A stretch of DNA of 64,000 nt from the NCBI RefSeq assembly GCF_988242995.1, contig NZ_OZ547043.1; one strand, given 5' to 3'. A program made the translations under genes and the position numbers. A model generated the notes under the pieces. The model searched no databases and was not told the DNA's origin. It was given only the letters and a program-made list of their open reading frames with translations. Shown piece after piece: positions 2,703 to 12,083 of this stretch. Numbering within the stretch: position 1 is the first letter of the stretch; the number at the start of each line of letters is the position of its first letter.

Positions 2703-4085
2703 ATGAAAAAAAACAATAGCCGCCGTGAGTTTCTGAGCCAGAGCTGTAAGATGGTCACCGCCGCCGCGCTGTTTGGTACCTCTGTGCCGCTCGCCCATGC
2801 GGCAGTCTCTGGCACCCTAAACTGCGACGCGAATAACACCATGAAAATCACTGACCCGCACTACTATCTCGACAACGTGCTGCTGGAAACCGGTTTTGAC
2901 TACGAAAACGGTGTGGCGGTACAGACCCGCACGGCGCACCAGACCGTAGAGATTCAGAACGGCAAAATTGTTGCCCTGCGCGAGAACAAGCAGCATCCGG
3001 ACGCCACGCTGCCGCACTATGACGCTGGCGGTAAGCTGATGCTGCCCACCACCCGCGACATGCATATTCATCTCGACAAAACCTTTTACGGCGGGCCGTG
3101 GCGCTCGCTCAATCGCCCGGCAGGCACCACCATCCAGGACATGATCAAACTCGAGCAGAAAATGCTGCCGGAGCTGCAACCGTACACTCAGGAACGAGCG
3201 GAAAAACTGATCGATTTATTGCAGTCGAAAGGCACTACCATTGCCCGCAGCCACTGCAATATCGAACCGGTTTCCGGCCTGAAAAATCTGCAAAATTTGC
3301 AGGCGGTGCTGGCGCGACGTCAGGCGGGCTTCGAGTGTGAAATTGTCGCCTTCCCGCAGCACGGTTTGCTGCTGTCGAAATCGGAACCCTTAATGCGTGA
3401 AGCGATGCAGGCGGGGGCGCATTACGTCGGCGGTCTGGATCCGACCAGTGTTGATGGCGCGATGGAAAAATCCCTCGATACCATGTTCCAGATTGCGCTG
3501 GACTACGACAAAGGCGTTGATATTCACCTGCACGAAACCACTCCGGCAGGCGTGGCAGCCATCAATTATATGGTTGAAACGGTGGAGAAAACGCCGCAAC
3601 TGAAGGGCAAGCTGACCATCAGCCACGCCTTTGCGCTGGCAACGCTCAATGAGCAACAGGTAGATGAACTGGCGCACCGGATGGCGGCGCAGCAAATTTC
3701 TATCGCCTCGACGGTGCCGATTGGCACGCTGCATATGCCGCTCAAACAGTTGCACGACAAAGGCGTAAAAGTGATGACCGGCACCGACAGCGTTATCGAC
3801 CACTGGTCGCCTTACGGCCTGGGCGACATGCTGGAAAAAGCCAATCTGTACGCGCAGCTCTATATTCGTCCTAACGAACAGAACCTCTCCCGCTCGCTGT
3901 TTTTAGCCACTGGCGATGTATTGCCGCTCAACGAAAAAGGCGAGCGCGTGTGGCCCAAAGCGCAGGATGATGCCAGCTTTGTGCTGGTGGACGCCTCCTG
4001 TTCCGCCGAGGCGGTGGCGCGTATCTCGCCGAGAACGGCGACGTTCCATAAAGGGCAACTGGTGTGGGGGAGTGTGGCAGGTTGA
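2703..4085 (+). CDS. yahJ: amidohydrolase-family deaminase with Tat signal peptide
   Basis: 460 aa; N-terminal SRREFLSQ twin-arginine motif; metal-dependent hydrolase His motifs (HIHLD). Confidence 0.85.
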   Translation: MKKNNSRREFLSQSCKMVTAAALFGTSVPLAHAAVSGTLNCDANNTMKITDPHYYLDNVLLETGFDYENGVAVQTRTAHQTVEIQNGKIVALRENKQHPDATLPHYDAGGKLMLPTTRDMHIHLDKTFYGGPWRSLNRPAGTTIQDMIKLEQKMLPELQPYTQERAEKLIDLLQSKGTTIARSHCNIEPVSGLKNLQNLQAVLARRQAGFECEIVAFPQHGLLLSKSEPLMREAMQAGAHYVGGLDPTSVDGAMEKSLDTMFQIALDYDKGVDIHLHETTPAGVAAINYMVETVEKTPQLKGKLTISHAFALATLNEQQVDELAHRMAAQQISIASTVPIGTLHMPLKQLHDKGVKVMTGTDSVIDHWSPYGLGDMLEKANLYAQLYIRPNEQNLSRSLFLATGDVLPLNEKGERVWPKAQDDASFVLVDASCSAEAVARISPRTATFHKGQLVWGSVAG

Positions 4086-4379
4086 TACGCATTTGAAACG
4101 CCTGCAATGGTGAATCGTAAGAGATTTAAAGCCCCAGGGAGTGGGGCGGGAATGGTTTGTTAATGAATGATCCTGAACTTTATAATCTCCCGGCATAATT
4201 TCCAGGGGATTATTTGAGAGAAATACACAAAAGTGAGTTTTAACAATATTTATCAAGCCATAAATGTGACCTGCTTCGGATAAAAAAGATTAAAAATAGA
4301 AAAACCAATGATACTCTTGCTGATGGTTATCAACAGTAATTAAGATGTGATTTTTTTCCGTAATCGCGAAAATATTCTC

Positions 4380-4790
4380 ATGACCATAAAAGAAAAAATC
4401 TCACAAAAATATCCCCATGCTTCCTTTTGTACTTTTGGCGATTCAGCAGCGTTGGCCGATCACCTCGCAACGTTGATTGCGACAGGTGTTAAAACAGCTT
4501 CCTGTGGTTCGCTGGCGGGATGTATTGAAGACAACGCATTTCCGATGATTGGTGAGTATAAGATTGTAGAAAATAGCCGTGGTGAGCCTGTCTGTGTTAT
4601 CAGAGTGATTGGCCTGCATTTACTGCGCTTTTCTGATGTCACCGCGGAGCTTGCCCGTAAGGAAGGTGAAGGTGACCTCAGTCTTGAATATTGGCGTAAT
4701 GAACACCGTCGTTTTTTCCAGGCAGAAGGATGCTATTCACCCGAAATGGACGTTATCTTTGAAGAATATGCCCTTATTGACGTTGTGTAG
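4380..4790 (+). CDS. ASCH-domain protein (YqfB-like fold); not present at this locus in K-12
   Basis: 136 aa from ATG 4380 (MTIKEK...); ASCH-like sequence; an alternative GTG start at 4347 is possible; flanked by AT-rich non-coding DNA. Confidence 0.55.
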   Translation: MTIKEKISQKYPHASFCTFGDSAALADHLATLIATGVKTASCGSLAGCIEDNAFPMIGEYKIVENSRGEPVCVIRVIGLHLLRFSDVTAELARKEGEGDLSLEYWRNEHRRFFQAEGCYSPEMDVIFEEYALIDVV

Positions 4791-5040
4791 ATAACTATTT
4801 TTCTACGCGAAATAAGCTCACAAACATAAAGTATCGCTAATTTTGTTTATTTTGCTGTTTTTTACGTGATGATTGTCACACTTATTGTTACTGCCCGTTT
4901 TGTCCATATTTATAACCAAATTTTTAATAGCTGCCTGAAATAGGGCTGTTTATTCTGCATAAAAATATTCGAAAATTCTTATTCTCTCCAGCGCGCTAAT
5001 TTGGGCGAACACTTCCTGACTACCCTGCAATGAGGCTGAA

Positions 5041-6027
5041 ATGATGAATAAACGTTTTGTTATCAATATGGTGTCTTCGCTGTTATTAGGCGCTGCGCTA
5101 ATTTCTGCGCCGCTCCAGGCAGCGGAAAAAGTCGTGGTGAATATCTCTAAAGTCGATGGTATGCCGTGGTTTAATCGCATGGGCGAAGGTGTGGTCGAGG
5201 CGGGTAAAGCCTTTGGTGTTAATGCGTCACAGGTGGGGCCTTCAAGTACTGATGCTCCGCAACAGGTTAAAATCATTGAGGATTTAATCGCCCGTAAGGT
5301 TAATGCAATTACAATTGTGCCAAACGATGCCAACGTGCTGGAACCGGTATTCAAAAAAGCGCGAGATGCCGGAATTGTGGTTCTGACCAACGAATCCCCC
5401 GGTCAGCCAAGTGCTAACTGGGATATCGAAATCATTGATAACGAAAAATTTGCCGCTGAATATGTTGAGCATATGGCGAAACGCATGGGTGGCAAGGGCG
5501 GCTATGTGATTTACGTGGGTAGTTTGACCGTGCCGCAGCATAACTTATGGGCTGACTTGCTGGTGAAATACCAGAAAGAGCATTACCCGGATATGCATGA
5601 AGTTACCCGCCGCATGCCGGTTGCCGAGAGTGTGGATGACTCACGTCGTACCACACTGGACCTCATGAAAACCTATCCTGACTTGAAAGCGGTTGTCTCC
5701 TTTGGTTCAAACGGTCCGATTGGCGCGGGACGTGCAGTGAAAGAGAAACGGGCGAAAAATAAAGTCGCAGTCTATGGCATGATGATCCCTTCACAGGCGG
5801 CATCACTGATTAAAAGTGGTGATATCACCGAAGGGATTACTTACGATCCGGCCTCTGCAGGTTACGCACTCGCGGCCGTCGCCAGCACGTTGCTGAAGGG
5901 TGAAGAGATCAAACCTGGATTAGAAATGGAGAATCTCGGTAAGGCCGACGTAGATATGGATAAGCGAATTATCCGTTTCCATAAGGTATTACTGGTCAAC
6001 AAAGACAATATCGACTCACTTTATTAA
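5041..6027 (+). CDS. periplasmic monosaccharide-binding protein of a CUT2 ABC transporter (LsrB/YtfQ-like)
   Basis: 328 aa; signal peptide (LLGAALISAPLQAAEK); C-terminal ...VNKDNIDSLY resembles the LsrB family; first gene of a PBP-ATPase-permease-permease block. Confidence 0.8.
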   Translation: MMNKRFVINMVSSLLLGAALISAPLQAAEKVVVNISKVDGMPWFNRMGEGVVEAGKAFGVNASQVGPSSTDAPQQVKIIEDLIARKVNAITIVPNDANVLEPVFKKARDAGIVVLTNESPGQPSANWDIEIIDNEKFAAEYVEHMAKRMGGKGGYVIYVGSLTVPQHNLWADLLVKYQKEHYPDMHEVTRRMPVAESVDDSRRTTLDLMKTYPDLKAVVSFGSNGPIGAGRAVKEKRAKNKVAVYGMMIPSQAASLIKSGDITEGITYDPASAGYALAAVASTLLKGEEIKPGLEMENLGKADVDMDKRIIRFHKVLLVNKDNIDSLY

Positions 6028-6075
6028 TCCATTTCTTCGGGGCGAAAGCCCCGATTCTTATTGCCAGGGGATGCT

Positions 6076-7560
6076 ATGGAAACCTTCCTTTCCCTTCGTC
6101 ATATCAACAAAACGTTTCATGCCACGCGAGCGCTGCGCGATGTTTCTCTCGACTTTATGTCGGGTGAGGTGCACTGCCTTGCCGGGCAAAACGGCTGTGG
6201 TAAATCGACGTTGATTAAAATTATGTCCGGTGTTTATCGCCCGGATGAGGGGGCGGAAATTACGCTTGGTGGGAAAAACTGGTCAAAGCTGACACCCGCC
6301 GCTTCGGTGGCGCAGGGGATTCAGGTGATTTATCAGGACCTCTCTTTATTTCCTAACCTGAGTGTCTGGGAGAATATCGCCGTGAATCACTATCACCACG
6401 GTCTGTTTGTTAACCGCCGTCGTCTGCGTGAGGTGGCGCAGGCGGCAATGACCAGTATTAACGTCACATTGCCACTGGATACGCTCGTTTCTGAGCTTTC
6501 AATTGCCCGCTGTCAGCTGGTGGCAATTTGCCGTGCACTGGCGCAGGACGCACGGTTGATCGTGATGGATGAACCAACCGCTTCGCTGACCCATCAGGAA
6601 GTGCAAGGGTTATTACAGGTGGTGCATCAATTGCGGGAACGCGGGATCTGCGTGGTCTTCGTCAGTCATCGTCTGGAAGAAGTGATGGAAGTTTCCGACC
6701 GTATTTCAGTGCTGAAAGATGGTGAGCTGGTCGGGACCTTTCCGGCCGCAGAGATGACCACAAAACAACTCAGTTTTCTGATGACCGGCCAGGAGTTCGA
6801 ATATCAGGTACGAGAGTTGTGGCAGGGAAAATCCAGCACCCCGGTGCTGGAGGTGCGTAATTTAAGTCGTCATGGGGAATATCAAAATATTAACTTGCGG
6901 GTGGAAGCGGGCGAAGTGGTGTCGATTGTTGGCCTGCTTGGTGCGGGGCGCACGGAATTATGTCTGAGTCTGTTTGGTATGACCCGACCGGATGCTGGTG
7001 AGATCCTCATCAACGGTCAGCCGGTTACACTGCATAGTAACCAGGACGCCATCCGCCACGGTATTGGTTATGTTTCGGAAGATCGCATGTCGCGCGGTTT
7101 GGTGATGGCGCAATCTATTGAAGACAACATCATTAGCACTGTTTTTCACAAGGTAAAAGATCGCTTCGGCTTTCTGAGTGAAGCTAAAGTGCGTGACCTG
7201 GTGGACAGGCTAATCAAGGCATTGACCATCAAAGTCTCTGACCCACATCTCCCGGTGAATACGCTTTCCGGGGGTAACGCGCAGCGAGTATCGATCGCCA
7301 AATGGCTGGCGATTGGGCCACGACTGTTGATTCTCGATAGCCCGACAGTCGGTGTTGATATCGCCAACAAAGCAGGAATATACGGCATTATCAGCGATCT
7401 GGCGGCTCATGGCATTGCGGTATTGATGATCTGCGATGAAATTGAAGAAGCGTGGTATCAAAGCCACCGGATTTTGGTAATGCAGAAAGGTCAGATCACC
7501 CATAGCTTCCTGCCTGACAGCAGTTCTCAGGCCAGGATTGCGGAGGTGGTAAATGGCTGA
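6076..7560 (+). CDS. sugar ABC transporter ATP-binding protein with two nucleotide-binding domains
   Basis: Walker A GQNGCGKST and a second NBD (GLLGAGRTEL), LSGG signature motifs; ATG 6076 preceded by GGGGA Shine-Dalgarno; the track start at 6061 is TTG. Confidence 0.85.
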   Translation: METFLSLRHINKTFHATRALRDVSLDFMSGEVHCLAGQNGCGKSTLIKIMSGVYRPDEGAEITLGGKNWSKLTPAASVAQGIQVIYQDLSLFPNLSVWENIAVNHYHHGLFVNRRRLREVAQAAMTSINVTLPLDTLVSELSIARCQLVAICRALAQDARLIVMDEPTASLTHQEVQGLLQVVHQLRERGICVVFVSHRLEEVMEVSDRISVLKDGELVGTFPAAEMTTKQLSFLMTGQEFEYQVRELWQGKSSTPVLEVRNLSRHGEYQNINLRVEAGEVVSIVGLLGAGRTELCLSLFGMTRPDAGEILINGQPVTLHSNQDAIRHGIGYVSEDRMSRGLVMAQSIEDNIISTVFHKVKDRFGFLSEAKVRDLVDRLIKALTIKVSDPHLPVNTLSGGNAQRVSIAKWLAIGPRLLILDSPTVGVDIANKAGIYGIISDLAAHGIAVLMICDEIEEAWYQSHRILVMQKGQITHSFLPDSSSQARIAEVVNG

Positions 7561-8524
7561 ACTGAAAAAACGTCATGAATTCTGGCTGGCATTACTGATT
7601 GTGGGGCTGTTTGTTGGCCTTGCCTGGCGCAGCGACGAGTTTCTGACATTCGGTAATTTGTACGATCTCGCCAATAACTATGCCATGTTGACTATTCTCG
7701 CCTGTGGTTTGTTTGTGGTGTTAATTTCCGGTGGGATTGATATTTCGTTTCCGGCAATGACCATCATTGCGCAATACGGCATGGTGCTGTTGCTGCAAAA
7801 AATTGGTGGCAACTTTGCTGTCGCGTTTGCACTGGCGGGCGGCATCGGCATTTTACTTGGCTTAATAAACGCCTTACTGGTTAATCGCCTACGGGTGCCG
7901 TCTATCATCATCACCATTTCGACGCTGAATATTTTCTATGGCCTGCTGTTATGGTTGAGTAAAGGTGTGTGGCTGTACGACTTTCCGCCGTGGTTTGAGC
8001 AGGGGGTAATGTTGTTCAAGTACACCGATGCTGACGGCTATGACTATGGCCTTGGTCTGCCGCTGATCGCCATGATTACGGTGGTGCTGCTAACAGCGTT
8101 TATCATGAATTTCACCAGTGTAGGGCGCAAAATTTATGCCCTTGGCGGGAACCGTGAATCAGCCAGTCGCATCGGCTTTAGCGTGCTGAAACTGCAACTT
8201 TTCGTTTACGGCTATATGGGATTGATGTCTGGTGCTGCGGGTGTAGTGCAGTCGTGGACGGTGATGACTGTCGCCCCCGATTCTCTTCTGGGTTATGAGC
8301 TGACAGTACTGGCTGCGGTGGTGCTTGGCGGCACTAGTTTGCTCGGCGGGCGCGGCACGTTAACCGGTACTTTGCTCGGCGTGGTGTTGTTGGCAGTGAT
8401 GCAAAACGGGCTAAATTTATTGGGAGTCTCGTCTTACTGGCAAACATTGATCACCGGCATCATCATCGTTGCCAGCATTAGTGCCACGGCGTGGAGTCAG
8501 CATCAGAACCGGAGTCTGCTATGA
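7553..8524 (+). CDS. sugar ABC transporter permease
   Basis: 323 aa, multi-pass hydrophobic; start overlaps the ATPase stop. Confidence 0.8.
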   Translation: MAELKKRHEFWLALLIVGLFVGLAWRSDEFLTFGNLYDLANNYAMLTILACGLFVVLISGGIDISFPAMTIIAQYGMVLLLQKIGGNFAVAFALAGGIGILLGLINALLVNRLRVPSIIITISTLNIFYGLLLWLSKGVWLYDFPPWFEQGVMLFKYTDADGYDYGLGLPLIAMITVVLLTAFIMNFTSVGRKIYALGGNRESASRIGFSVLKLQLFVYGYMGLMSGAAGVVQSWTVMTVAPDSLLGYELTVLAAVVLGGTSLLGGRGTLTGTLLGVVLLAVMQNGLNLLGVSSYWQTLITGIIIVASISATAWSQHQNRSLL

Positions 8525-9477
8525 AAAAATCGTGGCGTAACAACGTTGAGTTTTACTTGATCGGCCTGCTGGTGCTAACTGTTGCAGCCTTCAGCATTAC
8601 TATGCCGGAGATTTTCTGGTCGATAAGTAATTTCCAGTCCGTCGCTTCGCAAATGCCCGTGCTGGGCATTCTGGCGTTGGCTATGGCGGTGACCATGCTT
8701 TGCGGTGGCATTAACTTGTCAATTATTGCCACTGCTAACGCCTGTTCACTGGTAATGGCGTGGGTGGCGACTCAGTATCCACCGGGTATTGCTACGGTTG
8801 TCGCTACGCTGCTGGCGGGCGCTGGCGCGGCGGTGATAATCGGTTTATGTAACGGCGTATTGATTGCTGGTATTCGAGTGTCGCCAATTCTTGCAACGCT
8901 TGGGATGATGACGTTGCTCAAAGGGGTAAATATTCTGGTGACAGGCGGTAGCGCCATTGCCAATTATCCCTCATGGGTGCTGTGGTTGAATCATGCGCAA
9001 TGGTTCGGTATTCCGCTACCGATGTGGTTGTTTGCCGCAGTGGCACTGGGGCTGTGGATATTGCTGGAGAAAACGCCGCTCGGTAAAGCCATTTATCTGA
9101 TTGGTTCTAACGAACGAGCAACACTTTACTCCGGTATTAACACTCGTCGGGTGCTGATATGGGTGTATGTCATTTCCGCCTTACTTTGTGCGGTAGCGGC
9201 ATTTTTGATGATGTCGAAACTCAACTCGGCTAAGGCCTCTTATGGCGAATCGTACTTGCTGGTGTCAATCCTCGCGGCAGTACTCGGCGGGGTTAATCCG
9301 GACGGCGGCAGCGGGCGGATAATTGGTATGGTGCTGGCGCTGTTTCTTCTGCAAATTATTGAAAGCGGCTTCAATATTCTCGGTATAAGCCCCTACCTGA
9401 CGATGGCCTTATGGGGAACGTTGCTGCTCTGTTTCATTCAGGCTCGCGGCATGTTGGGGCTGGATCGGGTGGTTTAA
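8521..9477 (+). CDS. sugar ABC transporter permease (second subunit)
   Basis: ATG 8521 overlaps the upstream stop (ATGA); hydrophobic 318-aa product. Confidence 0.8.
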   Translation: MKKSWRNNVEFYLIGLLVLTVAAFSITMPEIFWSISNFQSVASQMPVLGILALAMAVTMLCGGINLSIIATANACSLVMAWVATQYPPGIATVVATLLAGAGAAVIIGLCNGVLIAGIRVSPILATLGMMTLLKGVNILVTGGSAIANYPSWVLWLNHAQWFGIPLPMWLFAAVALGLWILLEKTPLGKAIYLIGSNERATLYSGINTRRVLIWVYVISALLCAVAAFLMMSKLNSAKASYGESYLLVSILAAVLGGVNPDGGSGRIIGMVLALFLLQIIESGFNILGISPYLTMALWGTLLLCFIQARGMLGLDRVV

Positions 9478-9563
9478 ATATTGGCTATATTCAATGGACG
9501 CGTTTTGCCGCGATGACATATCAGGCATCGCCAAATACACATAGCTAATCAGGAGTAAACACA

Positions 9564-10613
9564 ATGAAGATCAAAGCTGTTGGTGCATATTCCGCTAAAC
9601 AACCGCTGGAACCGATGGATATTACCAGGCGTGAACCGGGACCGCATGATGTCAAAATTGAAATCGCTTACTGTGGCGTCTGCCATTCCGATCTCCACCA
9701 GGTCCGTTCCGAGTGGGCGGGGACGGTTTACCCCTGCGTGCCGGGTCATGAAATTGTGGGGCGTGTGGTAGCCGTTGGTGATCAGGTAGAAAAACATGCG
9801 CCGGGCGATCTGGTTGGTGTCGGCTGTATTGTCGACAGTTGTAAACATTGCGAAGAGTGTGAAGACGGGCTGGAAAACTACTGTGATCACATGACCGGCA
9901 CCTATAACTCGCCGACGCCGGACGAACCGGGCCATACTCTGGGCGGCTACTCACAACAGATCGTCGTTCATGAGCGATATGTTCTGCGTATTCGTCACCC
10001 GCAAGAGCAGCTGGCGGCGGTGGCACCTTTGTTGTGTGCAGGGATCACCACGTATTCGCCGCTACGTCACTGGCAGGTCGGTCCGGGTAAAAAAGTGGGC
10101 GTGGTCGGCATCGGCGGTCTGGGACATATGGGGATTAAGCTGGCCCACGCGATGGGGGCGCATGTGGTGGCATTTACCACTTCTGAGTCAAAACGCGAAG
10201 CGGCAAAAGCCCTGGGGGCCGATGAAGTTGTTAACTCACGCAATGCCGATGAGATGGCGGCTCATGTGAAGAGTTTCGATTTCATTTTGAATACAGTAGC
10301 TGCGCCACATAATCTCGACGATTTTACCACCTTGCTGAAGCGTGATGGCACCATGACGCTGGTTGGTGCGCCTGCGACACCGCATAAATCACCGGAAGTT
10401 TTCAACCTGATCATGAAACGCCGTGCGATAGCCGGTTCTATGATTGGCGGCATTCCAGAAACACAGGAGATGCTCGATTTTTGCGCCGAACATGGCATCG
10501 TGGCTGATATAGAGATGATTCGGGCCGATCAAATTAATGAAGCCTATGAGCGAATGCTGCGTGGTGATGTGAAATATCGTTTTGTTATCGATAATCGCAC
10601 ACTAACAGACTGA
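9564..10613 (+). CDS. yahK: zinc-dependent NADPH aldehyde reductase
   Basis: 349 aa; GVCHSDLH zinc-ADH motif and GxGxxG fold; SD AGGAG upstream. Confidence 0.9.
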   Translation: MKIKAVGAYSAKQPLEPMDITRREPGPHDVKIEIAYCGVCHSDLHQVRSEWAGTVYPCVPGHEIVGRVVAVGDQVEKHAPGDLVGVGCIVDSCKHCEECEDGLENYCDHMTGTYNSPTPDEPGHTLGGYSQQIVVHERYVLRIRHPQEQLAAVAPLLCAGITTYSPLRHWQVGPGKKVGVVGIGGLGHMGIKLAHAMGAHVVAFTTSESKREAAKALGADEVVNSRNADEMAAHVKSFDFILNTVAAPHNLDDFTTLLKRDGTMTLVGAPATPHKSPEVFNLIMKRRAIAGSMIGGIPETQEMLDFCAEHGIVADIEMIRADQINEAYERMLRGDVKYRFVIDNRTLTD

Positions 10614-10650
10614 AAAAATTAATAAATATCCTGTGGTTTAACATATTAAT

Positions 10651-10688
10651 TTCGCTCTCCACTTAACTTTTTAGTTAAGGAGAGCGAA
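10651..10688. terminator. long hairpin downstream of yahK (putative terminator)
   Basis: 10-bp stem TTCGCTCTCC/GGAGAGCGAA enclosing a second 6-bp stem TTAACT/AGTTAA; weak U-tract. Confidence 0.4.
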
Positions 10689-10855
10689 ATAATATCAAAG
10701 TAGCAGTAAAACCTATAACGTAAATTCAAATTGTTAAATTAACTCCCTCCAGGACACAATACTTCACACGTTAGTTATGAGCGATTTCTGATAGTGCATG
10801 GTTTAATCAGGGCTTTATTATCTGCGACGTTTATTTTTATTTAAGAGAGATCGCG

Positions 10856-11671
10856 ATGATATCATTAAAAGCTCCGCACAATAATTTGATGCCATATACG
10901 CAACAAAGCATACTTAATACAGTAAAAAACAATCAGTTACCAGAGGATATCAAAAGCTCCCTGGTTTCCTGTGTCGATATATTCAAGGTTTTGATTAAAC
11001 AATATTATGATTATCCTTATGATTGTCGTGATGATTTAGTCGATGACGACAAACTCATTCATCTCATGGCTGCCGTACGAGACTGTGAGTGGTCAGACGA
11101 TAACGCACTCACCATAAATGTGCAGTTTAATGATTTCCCAGGATTTTATGACTGGATGGATTACCCTGATCACCCGGTTAAGTTTGTTTTTCGCATACTT
11201 GAAAATCAAAAAGGGACAGTTTGGGTATATGACCAGGATGATGCGTTTCTTGATATTAAAGCAAATGTGCAGGCTGGACGCTTTACCGGGCTTAAGAAAT
11301 TAGTGCAGTTTATCGATTCAGTGCGAACAGATTGCAAATGTATTCTTCTTGAACACCATATGCCTTTGCTGAGACTTTTCCCTAAAGGGAAAGAGTGTAT
11401 GCATGTGGAAAAATGGCTTCGCGAAATGTCGTCTATTCCGGAGACCGACGCACCCATTAAGCAGGCGCTTGCGCATGGATTATTATTACACTTAAAAAAT
11501 ATCTACCCTGTTTTTCCTGAATCACTGGTGATGTTATTGCTCTCTGTTCTGGACGTAAAAACATACAGAGATGATGCGCGATTAAATCAATGGATATCTA
11601 ATAGAGTGCAGGAATTAGGTGACAGATATTATCCTGTAAATAAGCACGTTAAAATCCGCTACACTCTTTAG
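10856..11671 (+). CDS. yahL: protein of unknown function, AT-rich gene
   Basis: 271-aa ORF matching YahL in length and position; low-GC coding sequence. Confidence 0.7.
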   Translation: MISLKAPHNNLMPYTQQSILNTVKNNQLPEDIKSSLVSCVDIFKVLIKQYYDYPYDCRDDLVDDDKLIHLMAAVRDCEWSDDNALTINVQFNDFPGFYDWMDYPDHPVKFVFRILENQKGTVWVYDQDDAFLDIKANVQAGRFTGLKKLVQFIDSVRTDCKCILLEHHMPLLRLFPKGKECMHVEKWLREMSSIPETDAPIKQALAHGLLLHLKNIYPVFPESLVMLLLSVLDVKTYRDDARLNQWISNRVQELGDRYYPVNKHVKIRYTL

Positions 11672-12083
11672 TTCAGAAAGGGTTCCACCTGCGAGTTGTT
11701 ATTCCACCAGAGAGTGAATCGCAAAGCAGGTGATCATTTCATCTGTATATCCGTATGCCAAATGGCATTCCACCGCCTTTTTCGCCGATATTTTGTTGTG
11801 ATCGGCGACACTTCGCTTAAAAAAGCATCAGCAGTGGTTTCGCAGCTATACGGTGTATAAAAAATGATCTCATGCAGATGTTTTGTGAATGTGTGGGTTG
11901 ACATTCATATGAAAAAAATCATAATTCCATCATGTTTGTGTGGGGTCTTTTCTGTATCTTACGCATCGCACTCAAGCCTGACAGAAAATATGCTGTAAGG
12001 CTCATATCAAAAACCGCCATTAGCTCATCAGGAAGAGCAGACGACAACCAGGATTGTTGTATGGTACGGGGTTCGAGGCCTCG

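Follow-up and report, generated by a model that had tools for sequence, protein, structure and literature searches.

The nearest characterised structure to the protein described here is that of E. coli YqfB, an N4-acylcytosine/N4-acetylcytidine amidohydrolase (9KYF, 9KYH), in which Lys21, Thr24 and Glu74 are needed for activity, a T24S variant is as active as the wild type, and Arg26 forms the oxyanion hole, such that R26A is inactive (PMC6972931). YqfB yields cytosine or cytidine, which is then converted by deaminases (PMC6972931). An action on RNA has also been described in the superfamily: in a 2026 preprint, 19 out of 19 ASCH proteins freed E. coli tRNA of N4-acetylcytidine (ac4C) in vitro, in a survey that explicitly left out bacterial proteins substituted at the last position of the octapeptide, and ZmASCH of Z. 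mobilis cleaves single-stranded RNA but has no hydrolytic activity on ac4C. For the YhfF/DUF984 (COG4405) branch, which includes E. faecalis EF3133 (1T62), a Lactobacillus crispatus protein (3S9X) and B. subtilis YhfF, our literature search under YhfF, DUF984, EF3133 and COG4405 found no published function; the sole mention was of 1T62 as a template for modelling YqfB.

The gene considered here lies beside a system that is far better described. Aau (Z0415-Z0419, O-island 17) is a published L-arabinose-induced, AraC-dependent uptake system, and a reporter carrying about 300 bp upstream of Z0415 is induced by L-arabinose only and is silent in a delta-araC background (PMC11127945). The text of that paper does not mention the ASCH gene (PMC11127945). 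We analysed the locus in a window of 64,000 nt (RefSeq assembly GCF_988242995.1, contig NZ_OZ547043.1); all coordinates refer to this window and to its plus strand unless stated otherwise. The gene proves to be genuine but unremarkable, one of the small genes of E. coli, and its product already carries an ASCH-domain annotation.

The ASCH gene and its family

The open reading frame begins at GTG 4347 or ATG 4380 and ends with a stop at 4790. From the ATG, 4380..4790 is a 411-nt CDS for a product of 136 aa plus stop, annotated by RefSeq as 'ASCH domain-containing protein' WP_000152768.1; the O157 Sakai counterpart is ECs_5377, and the first Sakai annotation lacked the gene. The original prediction of a stand-alone ASCH-domain gene is borne out by Pfam, with a PF04266 match of 78.2 bits (E 8.7e-22) that lies far above the gathering score of 21.2 and covers residues 38-144 of the 147-aa GTG form, as well as by RefSeq, the AF2 model and Foldseek. 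The long AT-rich leader and trailer that had been noted are equally real: the yahJ-ASCH spacer (4086..4379) measures 294 nt with a GC content of 0.357, and the downstream spacer (4791..5040) 250 nt with 0.348, compared with 0.453 for the ASCH CDS, 0.567 for yahJ and 0.521 for the whole window. A stand-alone layout is typical of the family, with median intergenic gaps of 186 nt upstream and 167 nt downstream.

Both candidate starts had been described as weak in Shine-Dalgarno character and the choice between them as ambiguous. The first part stands: calculated anti-Shine-Dalgarno duplex energies are +0.1 kcal/mol for ATG 4380 and -1.4 for GTG 4347, against -5.6 to -10.8 kcal/mol for the neighbouring genes, and by this measure neither start has a Shine-Dalgarno sequence. 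The ambiguity, however, is settled by comparison with relatives, which places the start at ATG 4380 because a 2-nt indel between the GTG and the ATG throws GTG 4347 out of frame in both O157 Sakai and Escherichia sp. E2593. There the GTG frame runs into a stop, a TGA overlapping the ATG in Sakai and a TAA in E2593, which rules out GTG 4347. Enterobacterales orthologs are likewise 136 aa long, and their alignment starts at M1.

The AF2 model (pLDDT 95.2) predicts a PUA-like beta-barrel with flanking helices, and the top 16 Foldseek matches in the PDB are all ASCH structures. Among them are 3S9X and 1T62, with query-normalised TM scores of 0.83-0.85, the YqfB structures 9KYH and 9KYF (E 6e-5 to 2e-4, rmsd 2.0-2.1 Å, target-normalised TM 0.79-0.81), and those of ZmASCH (E about 2e-3). 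Sequence searches recover the YhfF/DUF984 proteins as clear relatives, with E values of 6e-19 (1T62) and 2.6e-16 (3S9X) for the single sequence and of 9.4e-34 and 2.8e-26 for the family profile; the same sequence-only profile search did not reach YqfB. These matches place the protein in the YhfF branch (COG4405, formerly Pfam DUF984), in keeping with the JGI name for its orthologs, 'uncharacterized protein YhfF'. It shares with the members of this branch the fold, a similar size of about 135-165 aa and the motifs GxK[T/R]A[T/S]x[S/G] and A-x-x-EGEGD-x-[S/T]-L-x-Y-W-x-x-x-H, but is only 26-30% identical to them and has a serine at position 41 where most have threonine.

The canonical ASCH octapeptide, GxKxxExR, is altered here. 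In G36-V-K38-T-A-S41-C-G43 the glycine and the lysine are kept, while glutamate is replaced by serine and arginine by glycine, a type of variation already known within the superfamily (2026 preprint). With the GKER-type proteins (T. thermophilus TthASCH, Z. mobilis ZmASCH, human TRIP4 and EOLA1) the protein thus has the superfamily, the fold and the octapeptide lysine in common; it differs from them in the serine that stands in place of their glutamate, in the terminal arginine that they keep, and in the weaker structural match. From 105 representatives at most 50% identical to each other we derived a subfamily signature, which is our own and not a published definition: F-G near the N terminus, GxKTA[T/S], EGEGD, W and H. 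All of its residues are present (F19, G20, G36, K38, S41, E95, G96, E97, G98, D99, W105, H109), each at least 90% conserved in the family when T and S are pooled at position 41 (T 93, S 11 of 106). In the 106 rows formed by the representatives and the query, K38 is lysine in 104, position 41 is T or S in 104, and E95 is glutamate in 105/105. Position 43 is serine in 63/106 and glycine in 23/106, and never a conserved arginine. The family is large, with about 1500 clusters at 50% identity; the protein matches no NCBIfam model, and a defence or phage origin was rejected for lack of any PADLOC or PHROGs match.

Active site and candidate chemistry

The original prediction drew a sensible parallel to YqfB: among characterised structures none is closer (Foldseek E 6e-5, target-normalised TM 0.8), the ASCH beta-barrel is shared, and a lysine, a threonine/serine and a glutamate of YqfB align with positions invariant across the YhfF/DUF984 family. 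The distance is nevertheless considerable, with 14% identity and 103 aa in YqfB against 136 aa here. In the hhalign alignment, a weak match (E 0.016, probability 2.8%), K38 pairs with K21, S41 with T24 and E95 with E74. Read in this way, the Lys-Thr/Ser-Glu triad of YqfB would have equivalents in the protein, whereas its oxyanion arginine would have none: the essential Arg26 pairs with G43, and His70 of YqfB with Leu91. The protein has in addition the invariant residues E97, D99, W105 and H109.

If YqfB is taken as the model, the base would be Lys38, the nucleophile Ser41 and the acid Glu95, a triad that would hydrolyse an amide (N-acyl) bond of a nucleobase- or nucleoside-like substrate or of RNA. 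The protein has no oxyanion arginine but instead an invariant, family-specific EGEGD...W...H motif. To judge from sequence, the protein is most likely a small amidohydrolase; we infer its chemistry, as we do the promoter and the expression level of its gene. As the pocket is unlike that of YqfB, the substrate is not necessarily N4-acetylcytidine, and since YqfB R26A is inactive and position 43 is a glycine here (serine or glycine across the family), the chemistry may differ as well. On balance, we lean towards a gene that is flanked by non-coding DNA of its own and codes for a small cytoplasmic ASCH enzyme of the YhfF/DUF984 type, which would use YqfB-like chemistry and be independent of aau.

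A bolder version of this, which we put forward tentatively and hold to be possible rather than probable, is that the YhfF/DUF984-type ASCH proteins make up a distinct class of small hydrolases, whose substrate would be another N-acylated or modified base, nucleoside or metabolite and not ac4C. With G43, the protein is substituted at the last octapeptide position and falls into the class outside the 19 surveyed proteins. The partners in 20 fused relatives (GATase, aminotransferase, HD, GT2, cupin, NTP transferase, PALP, rhodanese, histidine phosphatase and DUFs) form too mixed a set to serve as a clue to the substrate, and some of the fusions may be gene-calling artefacts.

That the protein acts on RNA, whether by erasing N4-acetylcytidine from tRNA or, in the manner of ZmASCH, by binding or cutting RNA, seems to us rather unlikely. 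The activity of all 19 surveyed proteins on tRNA would favour such a role, but the octapeptide class found here is absent from that set. ZmASCH structures do appear among the Foldseek matches, and one fusion partner weakly resembles a 3'-5' exoribonuclease; the fusion partners are, however, mostly small-molecule enzymes (GATase, aminotransferase, HD, histidine phosphatase, cupin, NTP transferase). Moreover, E. coli already has YqfB, the deletion of which leaves tRNA ac4C levels unchanged.

Distribution, neighbours and flanking DNA

The ASCH gene is accessory and ancestral in Escherichia. It is found in 2215 of 5426 complete E. coli genomes (41%) and is absent from 59%, with K-12 and BL21 among the strains in which it has been deleted. 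K-12 MG1655 preserves traces of it: the last 48 nt of the ORF and the next 22 nt (4743..4812) match nt 86-155 of the MG1655 yahJ-yahK spacer with 94% identity, and a second relic corresponds to the end of the second permease gene of aau (9406-9563, 98.7%). These relics show that O-island 17, ASCH gene and aau together, is ancestral and was lost by deletion, and is not an acquisition of EHEC.

Does the gene still matter to its carriers? It has no Shine-Dalgarno sequence, which is present in 70/83 orthologs elsewhere, its dN/dS relative to E2593 is 0.21 (4 to 25 times the 0.008-0.05 of its neighbours), and it is missing from more than half of the complete genomes, all of which suggests that its contribution may be small. 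Still, we consider it quite unlikely that this is a barely expressed, decaying accessory gene without a current role. Nearly all 2215 carriers have an unbroken ORF with an identity of 95% or more, dN/dS is well under 1, and every family-invariant residue is kept. A transcript probably exists, too: Z0414, which by its numbering is probably the ASCH ORF, appears in EHEC RNA-seq data.

The upstream yahD-yahJ cluster encodes AllF/G/H-like proteins, a carbamate kinase and the cytosine-deaminase-like YahJ, and one could imagine a joint pathway in which the ASCH protein de-acylates an N-heterocycle that YahJ then deaminates. We regard this as very unlikely. YahJ does score against cytosine-deaminase subfamily models, and the products of YqfB do feed deaminases (PMC6972931), but YahJ has what looks by eye like a twin-arginine-type signal sequence and the ASCH protein has none. 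The adjacency of yahJ and the ASCH gene is retained in E2593 after the loss of aau; in other genera, however, a yahJ homolog occurs at 0/83 orthologous loci, and K-12 has an intact yahD-J without the ASCH gene. The terminator scan called no terminator between the two genes, although 294 nt of AT-rich DNA separate them.

This spacer probably carries the ASCH promoter. A consensus scan (10/12 matches) found a single sigma-70-like candidate in it, TTGTTA - 18 nt - TATAAT at 4157..4186, which is not above chance (1 found versus 2.6 expected in shuffled sequence); its -10 hexamer TATAAT is the same in Sakai and E2593, and if it is used, the ASCH 5' UTR would be about 190 nt long. Just upstream, 46 nt past the yahJ stop, a hairpin (GCCCCA-GGGAG-TGGGGC, 4131..4147) is present in both MFE and centroid folds and kept in K-12, Sakai and E2593; it is the final sequence shared with K-12 before the first deletion. 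As a terminator it lacks a following T-run and was not called by the terminator scan. At the other end of the spacer, a weak stem (inverted repeat I6, UGUGA + U-run / A-run + UCUCA, 4346..4403) encloses the ASCH start codon and forms in the window, in Sakai and in E2593 alike, with energies between -8.4 and -9.5 kcal/mol. Despite its presence in three Escherichia sequences we make no functional claim for it, as its z-score of about -1.3 is not significant.

The long leader had also been proposed to be regulatory, with a riboswitch conceivable in either spacer. This did not hold up. In an Rfam 15 scan of 3900-5300, with E values up to 10, no RNA family, riboswitches included, exceeded its gathering score; the lone match, to Atu_C9 on the minus strand, is at chance level (E 2.6, 11.4 bits where the gathering score is 40). 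Folding z-scores relative to shuffled sequence are unremarkable, at -0.97 and +0.63 for the leader and +1.51 for the trailer. Within Escherichia, the leader is 90% identical to that of E2593, compared with a synonymous divergence (dS) of 0.24 for the ASCH ORF, and shows indels of 2, 3 and 20 nt. Running both spacers through blastn against 90 loci turned up nothing, and the regions upstream of the 83 orthologs outside the genus show no similarity to the leader. On Rfam, folding and blastn together we reject a riboswitch or leader RNA in 4086-4379 or 4791-5040. Nor did we find a leader peptide: the plus strand of 4086-4346 contains no upstream ORF of at least 20 aa, and the only listed plus-strand ORFs that reach into the leader do so at its ends: 3916..4113, the greater part of which falls within yahJ, and the ASCH ORF as read from GTG 4347.

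The trailer, in turn, doubles as the promoter and regulatory region of the next transcription unit, as the published reporter attests (PMC11127945), and is 98% identical to the Sakai sequence. The aau operon (Z0415-Z0419, 5044..9477), delimited by Pfam, NCBIfam, RefSeq coordinates, the Sakai annotation and the published description (PMC11127945), comprises genes for a binding protein (5044-6027), an ATPase (6076-7560) and two permeases (7553-8524 and 8521-9477). Its upstream spacer is a promoter region of the AraC/CRP type. A CRP-like site, CGTGAtgattgTCACA (4865..4880), deviates from TGTGA-N6-TCACA at one position (3 such sites in the window versus 1.8 expected), and its location upstream of an AraC-like site suggests that CRP may bind there. 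The latter, an I1-like half-site TGCCCGTTTTGTCCATA (4892-4908), has 2 mismatches to TAGC-N7-TCCATA and taken alone is at chance level (38 found versus 42 expected). A candidate I2 half-site, TAACCAAATTTTTAATA (4913-4929, 3 mismatches), was found by eye 21 bp downstream of it. The order of CRP, I1 and I2 and the 21-bp spacing are presumably those of araBAD.

What, then, ties the ASCH gene to the transporter? The two are same-strand neighbours, the terminator scan picked up no intrinsic terminator in the DNA that separates them, and they are inherited together within E. coli almost perfectly (2215 and 2218 of 5426 complete genomes), but such co-inheritance is expected because nested deletions remove neighbours together. 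In EHEC RNA-seq, L-arabinose raises Z0414 3.7-fold, as against 26- to 43-fold for the Aau genes, and many unrelated genes likewise rise 3- to 4-fold. Outside E. coli the association dissolves: homologs of the Aau binding protein or permeases occur within 5 kb of the ASCH ortholog at 0/83 loci in other genera, and one Escherichia clade, represented by E2593, has yahJ-ASCH-yahK without the transporter. Clustering of the ORFs within 3 kb of the 83 orthologs revealed no conserved partner beyond within-genus synteny; the recurrent neighbours reflect synteny in Proteus or belong to generic families (LysR, SDR, Zn-ADH), and a conserved operon partner was rejected on this ground. We take the ASCH gene not to belong to the operon of the adjacent transporter, and outside E. 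coli it is independent of Aau; its position beside this separate AraC-dependent unit with a sugar substrate is largely accidental.

Least likely of all is the salvage of an imported modified nucleoside or sugar by the ASCH protein and the ABC transporter under a ligand-sensing leader RNA, along the lines of the original prediction: whatever adjacency, co-inheritance and the 3.7-fold rise might lend to it, the inducer is L-arabinose, the regulator AraC and the promoter downstream of the ASCH stop (PMC11127945), the leader has no Rfam match, excess structure or cross-genus conservation, and with Aau a published arabinose transporter, the salvage and riboswitch ideas can be set aside.

Significance for E. 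coli and the family

The practical value of finding this ASCH gene is small. It does, however, direct attention to a large subfamily, YhfF/DUF984, that is represented by two crystal structures, appears to carry the triad without the essential arginine, and belongs to the one octapeptide class outside the recent survey. As the gene is missing from K-12, from BL21 and from the first Sakai annotation, it has been invisible to work on standard strains. That O-island 17 is ancestral also matters for the interpretation of the link between Aau and pathogenic lineages. If the YhfF/DUF984-type proteins do form a distinct hydrolase class, natural E. coli, including EHEC, would carry a second ASCH enzyme activity, and its loss by deletion from K-12 and BL21 would explain why that activity has never been studied.

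The ASCH gene and its start

The gene at 4380-4790 (+ strand) is real, stand-alone and accessory, and its 136-aa product is an ASCH protein of the YhfF/DUF984 type. As originally predicted, the product matches Pfam ASCH (E 8.7e-22; 78.2 bits, where the cut-off is 21.2), and RefSeq calls the same interval 'ASCH domain-containing protein' (WP_000152768.1). The long AT-rich flanks were also correctly described, with a GC content of 0.357 in the leader (4086-4379) and 0.348 in the trailer (4791-5040) versus 0.453 in the coding sequence; that of yahJ is 0.567. The start had been left ambiguous between GTG 4347 and ATG 4380, neither with a strong Shine-Dalgarno sequence. Neither in fact has one: the anti-Shine-Dalgarno duplex energy is +0.1 kcal/mol at the ATG and -1.4 at the GTG, versus -5.6 to -10.8 for neighbouring genes. 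AAGG or AGGA lies upstream of 70 of 83 orthologs elsewhere, and its absence is confined to the Escherichia branch. The ambiguity itself can be lifted: in O157 Sakai and in E2593, an Escherichia sp. with an ASCH-only haplotype, the GTG-to-ATG interval is 2 nt longer than in the window, and because of this insertion the GTG frame stops before or at the ATG, so that GTG 4347 was rejected. In 15 other taxa the orthologs, of about 136 aa, align from Met1, and these comparisons place the start at ATG 4380. Selection on the gene is purifying, if weaker than on its neighbours (dN/dS between the window and E2593 of 0.21, compared with 0.008 for yahI, 0.049 for yahJ and 0.020 for yahK).

The window is E. 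coli chromosome, strain 118UI being the best match among complete genomes (99.3% over 4000-5100). The ASCH gene is preceded by yahG, by yahI, which encodes carbamate kinase, and by the amidohydrolase gene yahJ (2703-4085); on its other side are the four genes of a sugar ABC transporter (5044-9477), followed by yahK (9564-10613) and yahL. The order in Sakai is the same: yahJ (ECs_0373), ECs_5377, which is the ASCH gene, and ECs_0374-0378. ECs_5377 (L091:14398-14808 in the Sakai locus; product 'hypothetical protein') is numbered out of order, indicating a late addition missing from the original Sakai annotation; the gene would have escaped O157 studies that rely on ECs numbers. YahJ itself is cytosine-deaminase-like (NCBIfam PRK06846, 716 bits), and its N terminus (2703-2800), starting MKKNNSRREFLSQSCKMVTAAALFGTSVPLAHA, looks like a twin-arginine export signal; a periplasmic deaminase clustered with carbamate kinase and AllF/G/H-like genes would be unusual. 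A second low-GC patch (0.34-0.42; 10650-12000), comprising the yahK-yahL spacer and yahL, resembles the ASCH flanks in composition.

Leader and trailer

Both flanks are ordinary spacers of the promoter-carrying kind, and the suggestion that they hold a riboswitch or other regulatory RNA did not hold up: an Rfam E-value scan of 3900-5300 returned a single chance-level match and nothing else, and no RNA element was found in the leader. Its folding z is -0.97 as a whole and +0.63 over 4190-4400; no small ORF on the + strand lies within it, nor does it resemble the regions upstream of orthologs in other genera. Within Escherichia it carries indels of 2, 3 and 20 nt and a variable patch, and at 90% identity to E2593 it varies less than the ORF does at synonymous sites (dS 0.24), a normal finding for spacers that contain promoters. 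A hairpin at 4131-4147 just follows yahJ, and a weak stem around the start codon (4346-4403) occurs in all three Escherichia sequences at a z of only about -1.3. A sigma-70-like match, TTGTTA-18-TATAAT (4157-4186), whose -10 element is identical in Sakai and E2593, is a candidate promoter, albeit tentative, since such sites were fewer in the scan than in shuffles.

The trailer, whose predicted fold is less stable than that of shuffled sequence (z +1.51), is the published AraC-dependent promoter region of the next operon. Z0415-Z0419 on O-island 17 encode 'Aau', an accessory L-arabinose uptake system, and a lux reporter with about 300 bp upstream of Z0415 was induced by L-arabinose only, was off in a delta-araC strain and was rescued by araC in trans (Nat Commun 2024, PMC11127945). 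This fragment corresponds to the trailer plus roughly the last 50 nt of the ASCH ORF, making the trailer a protein-regulated promoter region. A CRP-like site, CGTGAtgattgTCACA (4865-4880; one mismatch), lies 12 nt upstream of an I1-like half-site for AraC, TGCCCGTTTTGTCCATA (4892-4908; two mismatches, chance-level alone), and a weaker AraC half-site was seen by eye 21 bp downstream of the latter (4913-4929). Their order and spacing are, we presume, those of araBAD. The AraC operator of the aau promoter was left unmapped in PMC11127945, and the segment 4865-4929 is a concrete candidate for it.

The neighbouring transporter and the history of the locus

What, then, of the transporter next door, with which the gene had been suggested to salvage a modified nucleoside or sugar? 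Among 5426 complete E. coli genomes, 2215 carry the ASCH gene and 2218 the gene for the Aau binding protein, but this apparent tie fails outside E. coli. Scanning a single genome from each species gave 80 orthologous loci (46-64% identity) in Pseudenterobacter, Kosakonia, Proteus, Providencia, Morganella, Erwinia, Pantoea, Serratia, Rahnella, Klebsiella, Enterobacter, Pseudomonas and others; together with three further loci, none of the 83 encodes a homolog of either the Aau binding protein or the Aau permeases within 5 kb, and none has yahJ. Clustering of flanking ORFs gave recurrent LysR, SDR and Zn-ADH families and no neighbour common beyond within-genus synteny; orthologs typically stand alone (median gap 186 nt on the upstream side and 167 nt on the downstream side). 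E2593 reads yahJ-ASCH-yahK, with the transporter absent. Together with an inducer that is L-arabinose acting through AraC, these observations argue against the salvage link: the ASCH gene is not part of the adjoining arabinose transporter system.

Expression data touch the same question. In EHEC RNA-seq on L-arabinose, 'Z0414, hypothetical protein' rose 3.7-fold (FDR 1.5e-8), Z0415 26.5-fold and Z0417 43-fold (PMC11127945). Z0414 is probably the ASCH gene, as it is numbered between yahJ and Z0415 in a table otherwise using PGAP-style tags; if so, a transcript exists. Many unrelated genes rose by a comparable factor in the same experiment (PMC11127945 table), so this modest rise is no proof of AraC control. 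The rut operon, nac, glnA and glnK were also up (Supplementary Data 1, PMC11127945), suggesting a nitrogen-limitation response superimposed on that to arabinose. The Aau ATPase gene is complete in the window (6076-7560, 499-aa ORF), and functional Aau is therefore predicted for this strain; the shorter Sakai CDS (ECs_0375, L091:16400-17578) agrees with the premature stop reported for the EDL933 derivative TUV93-0 (PMC11127945).

The 376-nt yahJ-yahK spacer of K-12 MG1655 (L092:2209-2584) is a mosaic of relics. Its nt 3-61 correspond to window 4088-4147, nt 86-155 to 4743-4812 (94%; the final 48 nt of the ASCH ORF and 22 nt beyond it) and nt 219-376 to 9406-9563 (98.7%; the final 72 nt of the gene for the second permease, with the spacer), the last being a pseudogene fragment in RefSeq. 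The spacer aligns end to end with the E2593 haplotype, and the two share a 20-nt segment absent from the window. BL21(DE3) has the K-12 state. The simplest history would be an ancestral yahJ-ASCH-aau-yahK order from which aau was lost first, followed by the ASCH gene on that background. The relics and the alignment suggest that 'O-island 17', described as horizontally acquired (PMC11127945), is ancestral and was dropped by K-12 and BL21 through two nested deletions. Co-inheritance within E. coli is expected from adjacency and nested deletion, and is thus not evidence of shared function.

Family and predicted chemistry of the ASCH protein

By sequence, the nearest proteins of solved structure are 1T62 (E. 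faecalis EF3133, entered as 'Pfam DUF984'; E 6e-19 with the single sequence, 9.4e-34 with a 16-sequence profile) and 3S9X (Lactobacillus crispatus ASCH domain; 2.6e-16 and 2.8e-26), both structural-genomics entries; our literature search found no function for either, or for 'YhfF', the JGI name for the orthologs. Foldseek with a confident AF2 model (pLDDT 95.2) ranked these two first, then the E. coli N4-acylcytidine amidohydrolase YqfB (9KYH with ac4C bound, 9KYF without it; E 6e-5 to 2e-4, rmsd 2.0-2.1 A, target-normalised TM 0.79-0.81), then PH0355 and ZmASCH.

Profile-sequence alignment pairs K38, S41, G43 and E95 with YqfB K21, T24, R26 and E74. In YqfB, K21A, T24A and R26A have no activity, E74A is slowed 100- to 1000-fold and T24S equals wild type (PMC6972931). 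A search of 1.84 billion representatives gave 1511 clusters at E up to 1e-10; in an alignment of 105 single-domain representatives plus the query (106 rows), K38 is kept in 104/106, position 41 is T or S in 104/106, E95 is kept in 105/105, and E97, D99, W105 and H109 each occur in at least 100/106. At position 43 the family has S or G, with no conserved Arg. It thus shares the Lys-Thr/Ser-Glu triad with YqfB but lacks the Arg, and adds an invariant motif of its own. On these grounds we lean modestly towards a small amidohydrolase that would use YqfB-like chemistry, on a substrate that may not be ac4C. In a 2026 preprint, 19 ASCH proteins removed ac4C from tRNA; bacterial proteins substituted at the terminal octapeptide position were excluded, so the YhfF/DUF984-type octapeptide class falls outside those assayed. 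With this protein a known superfamily gains a new member, as yet uncharacterised.
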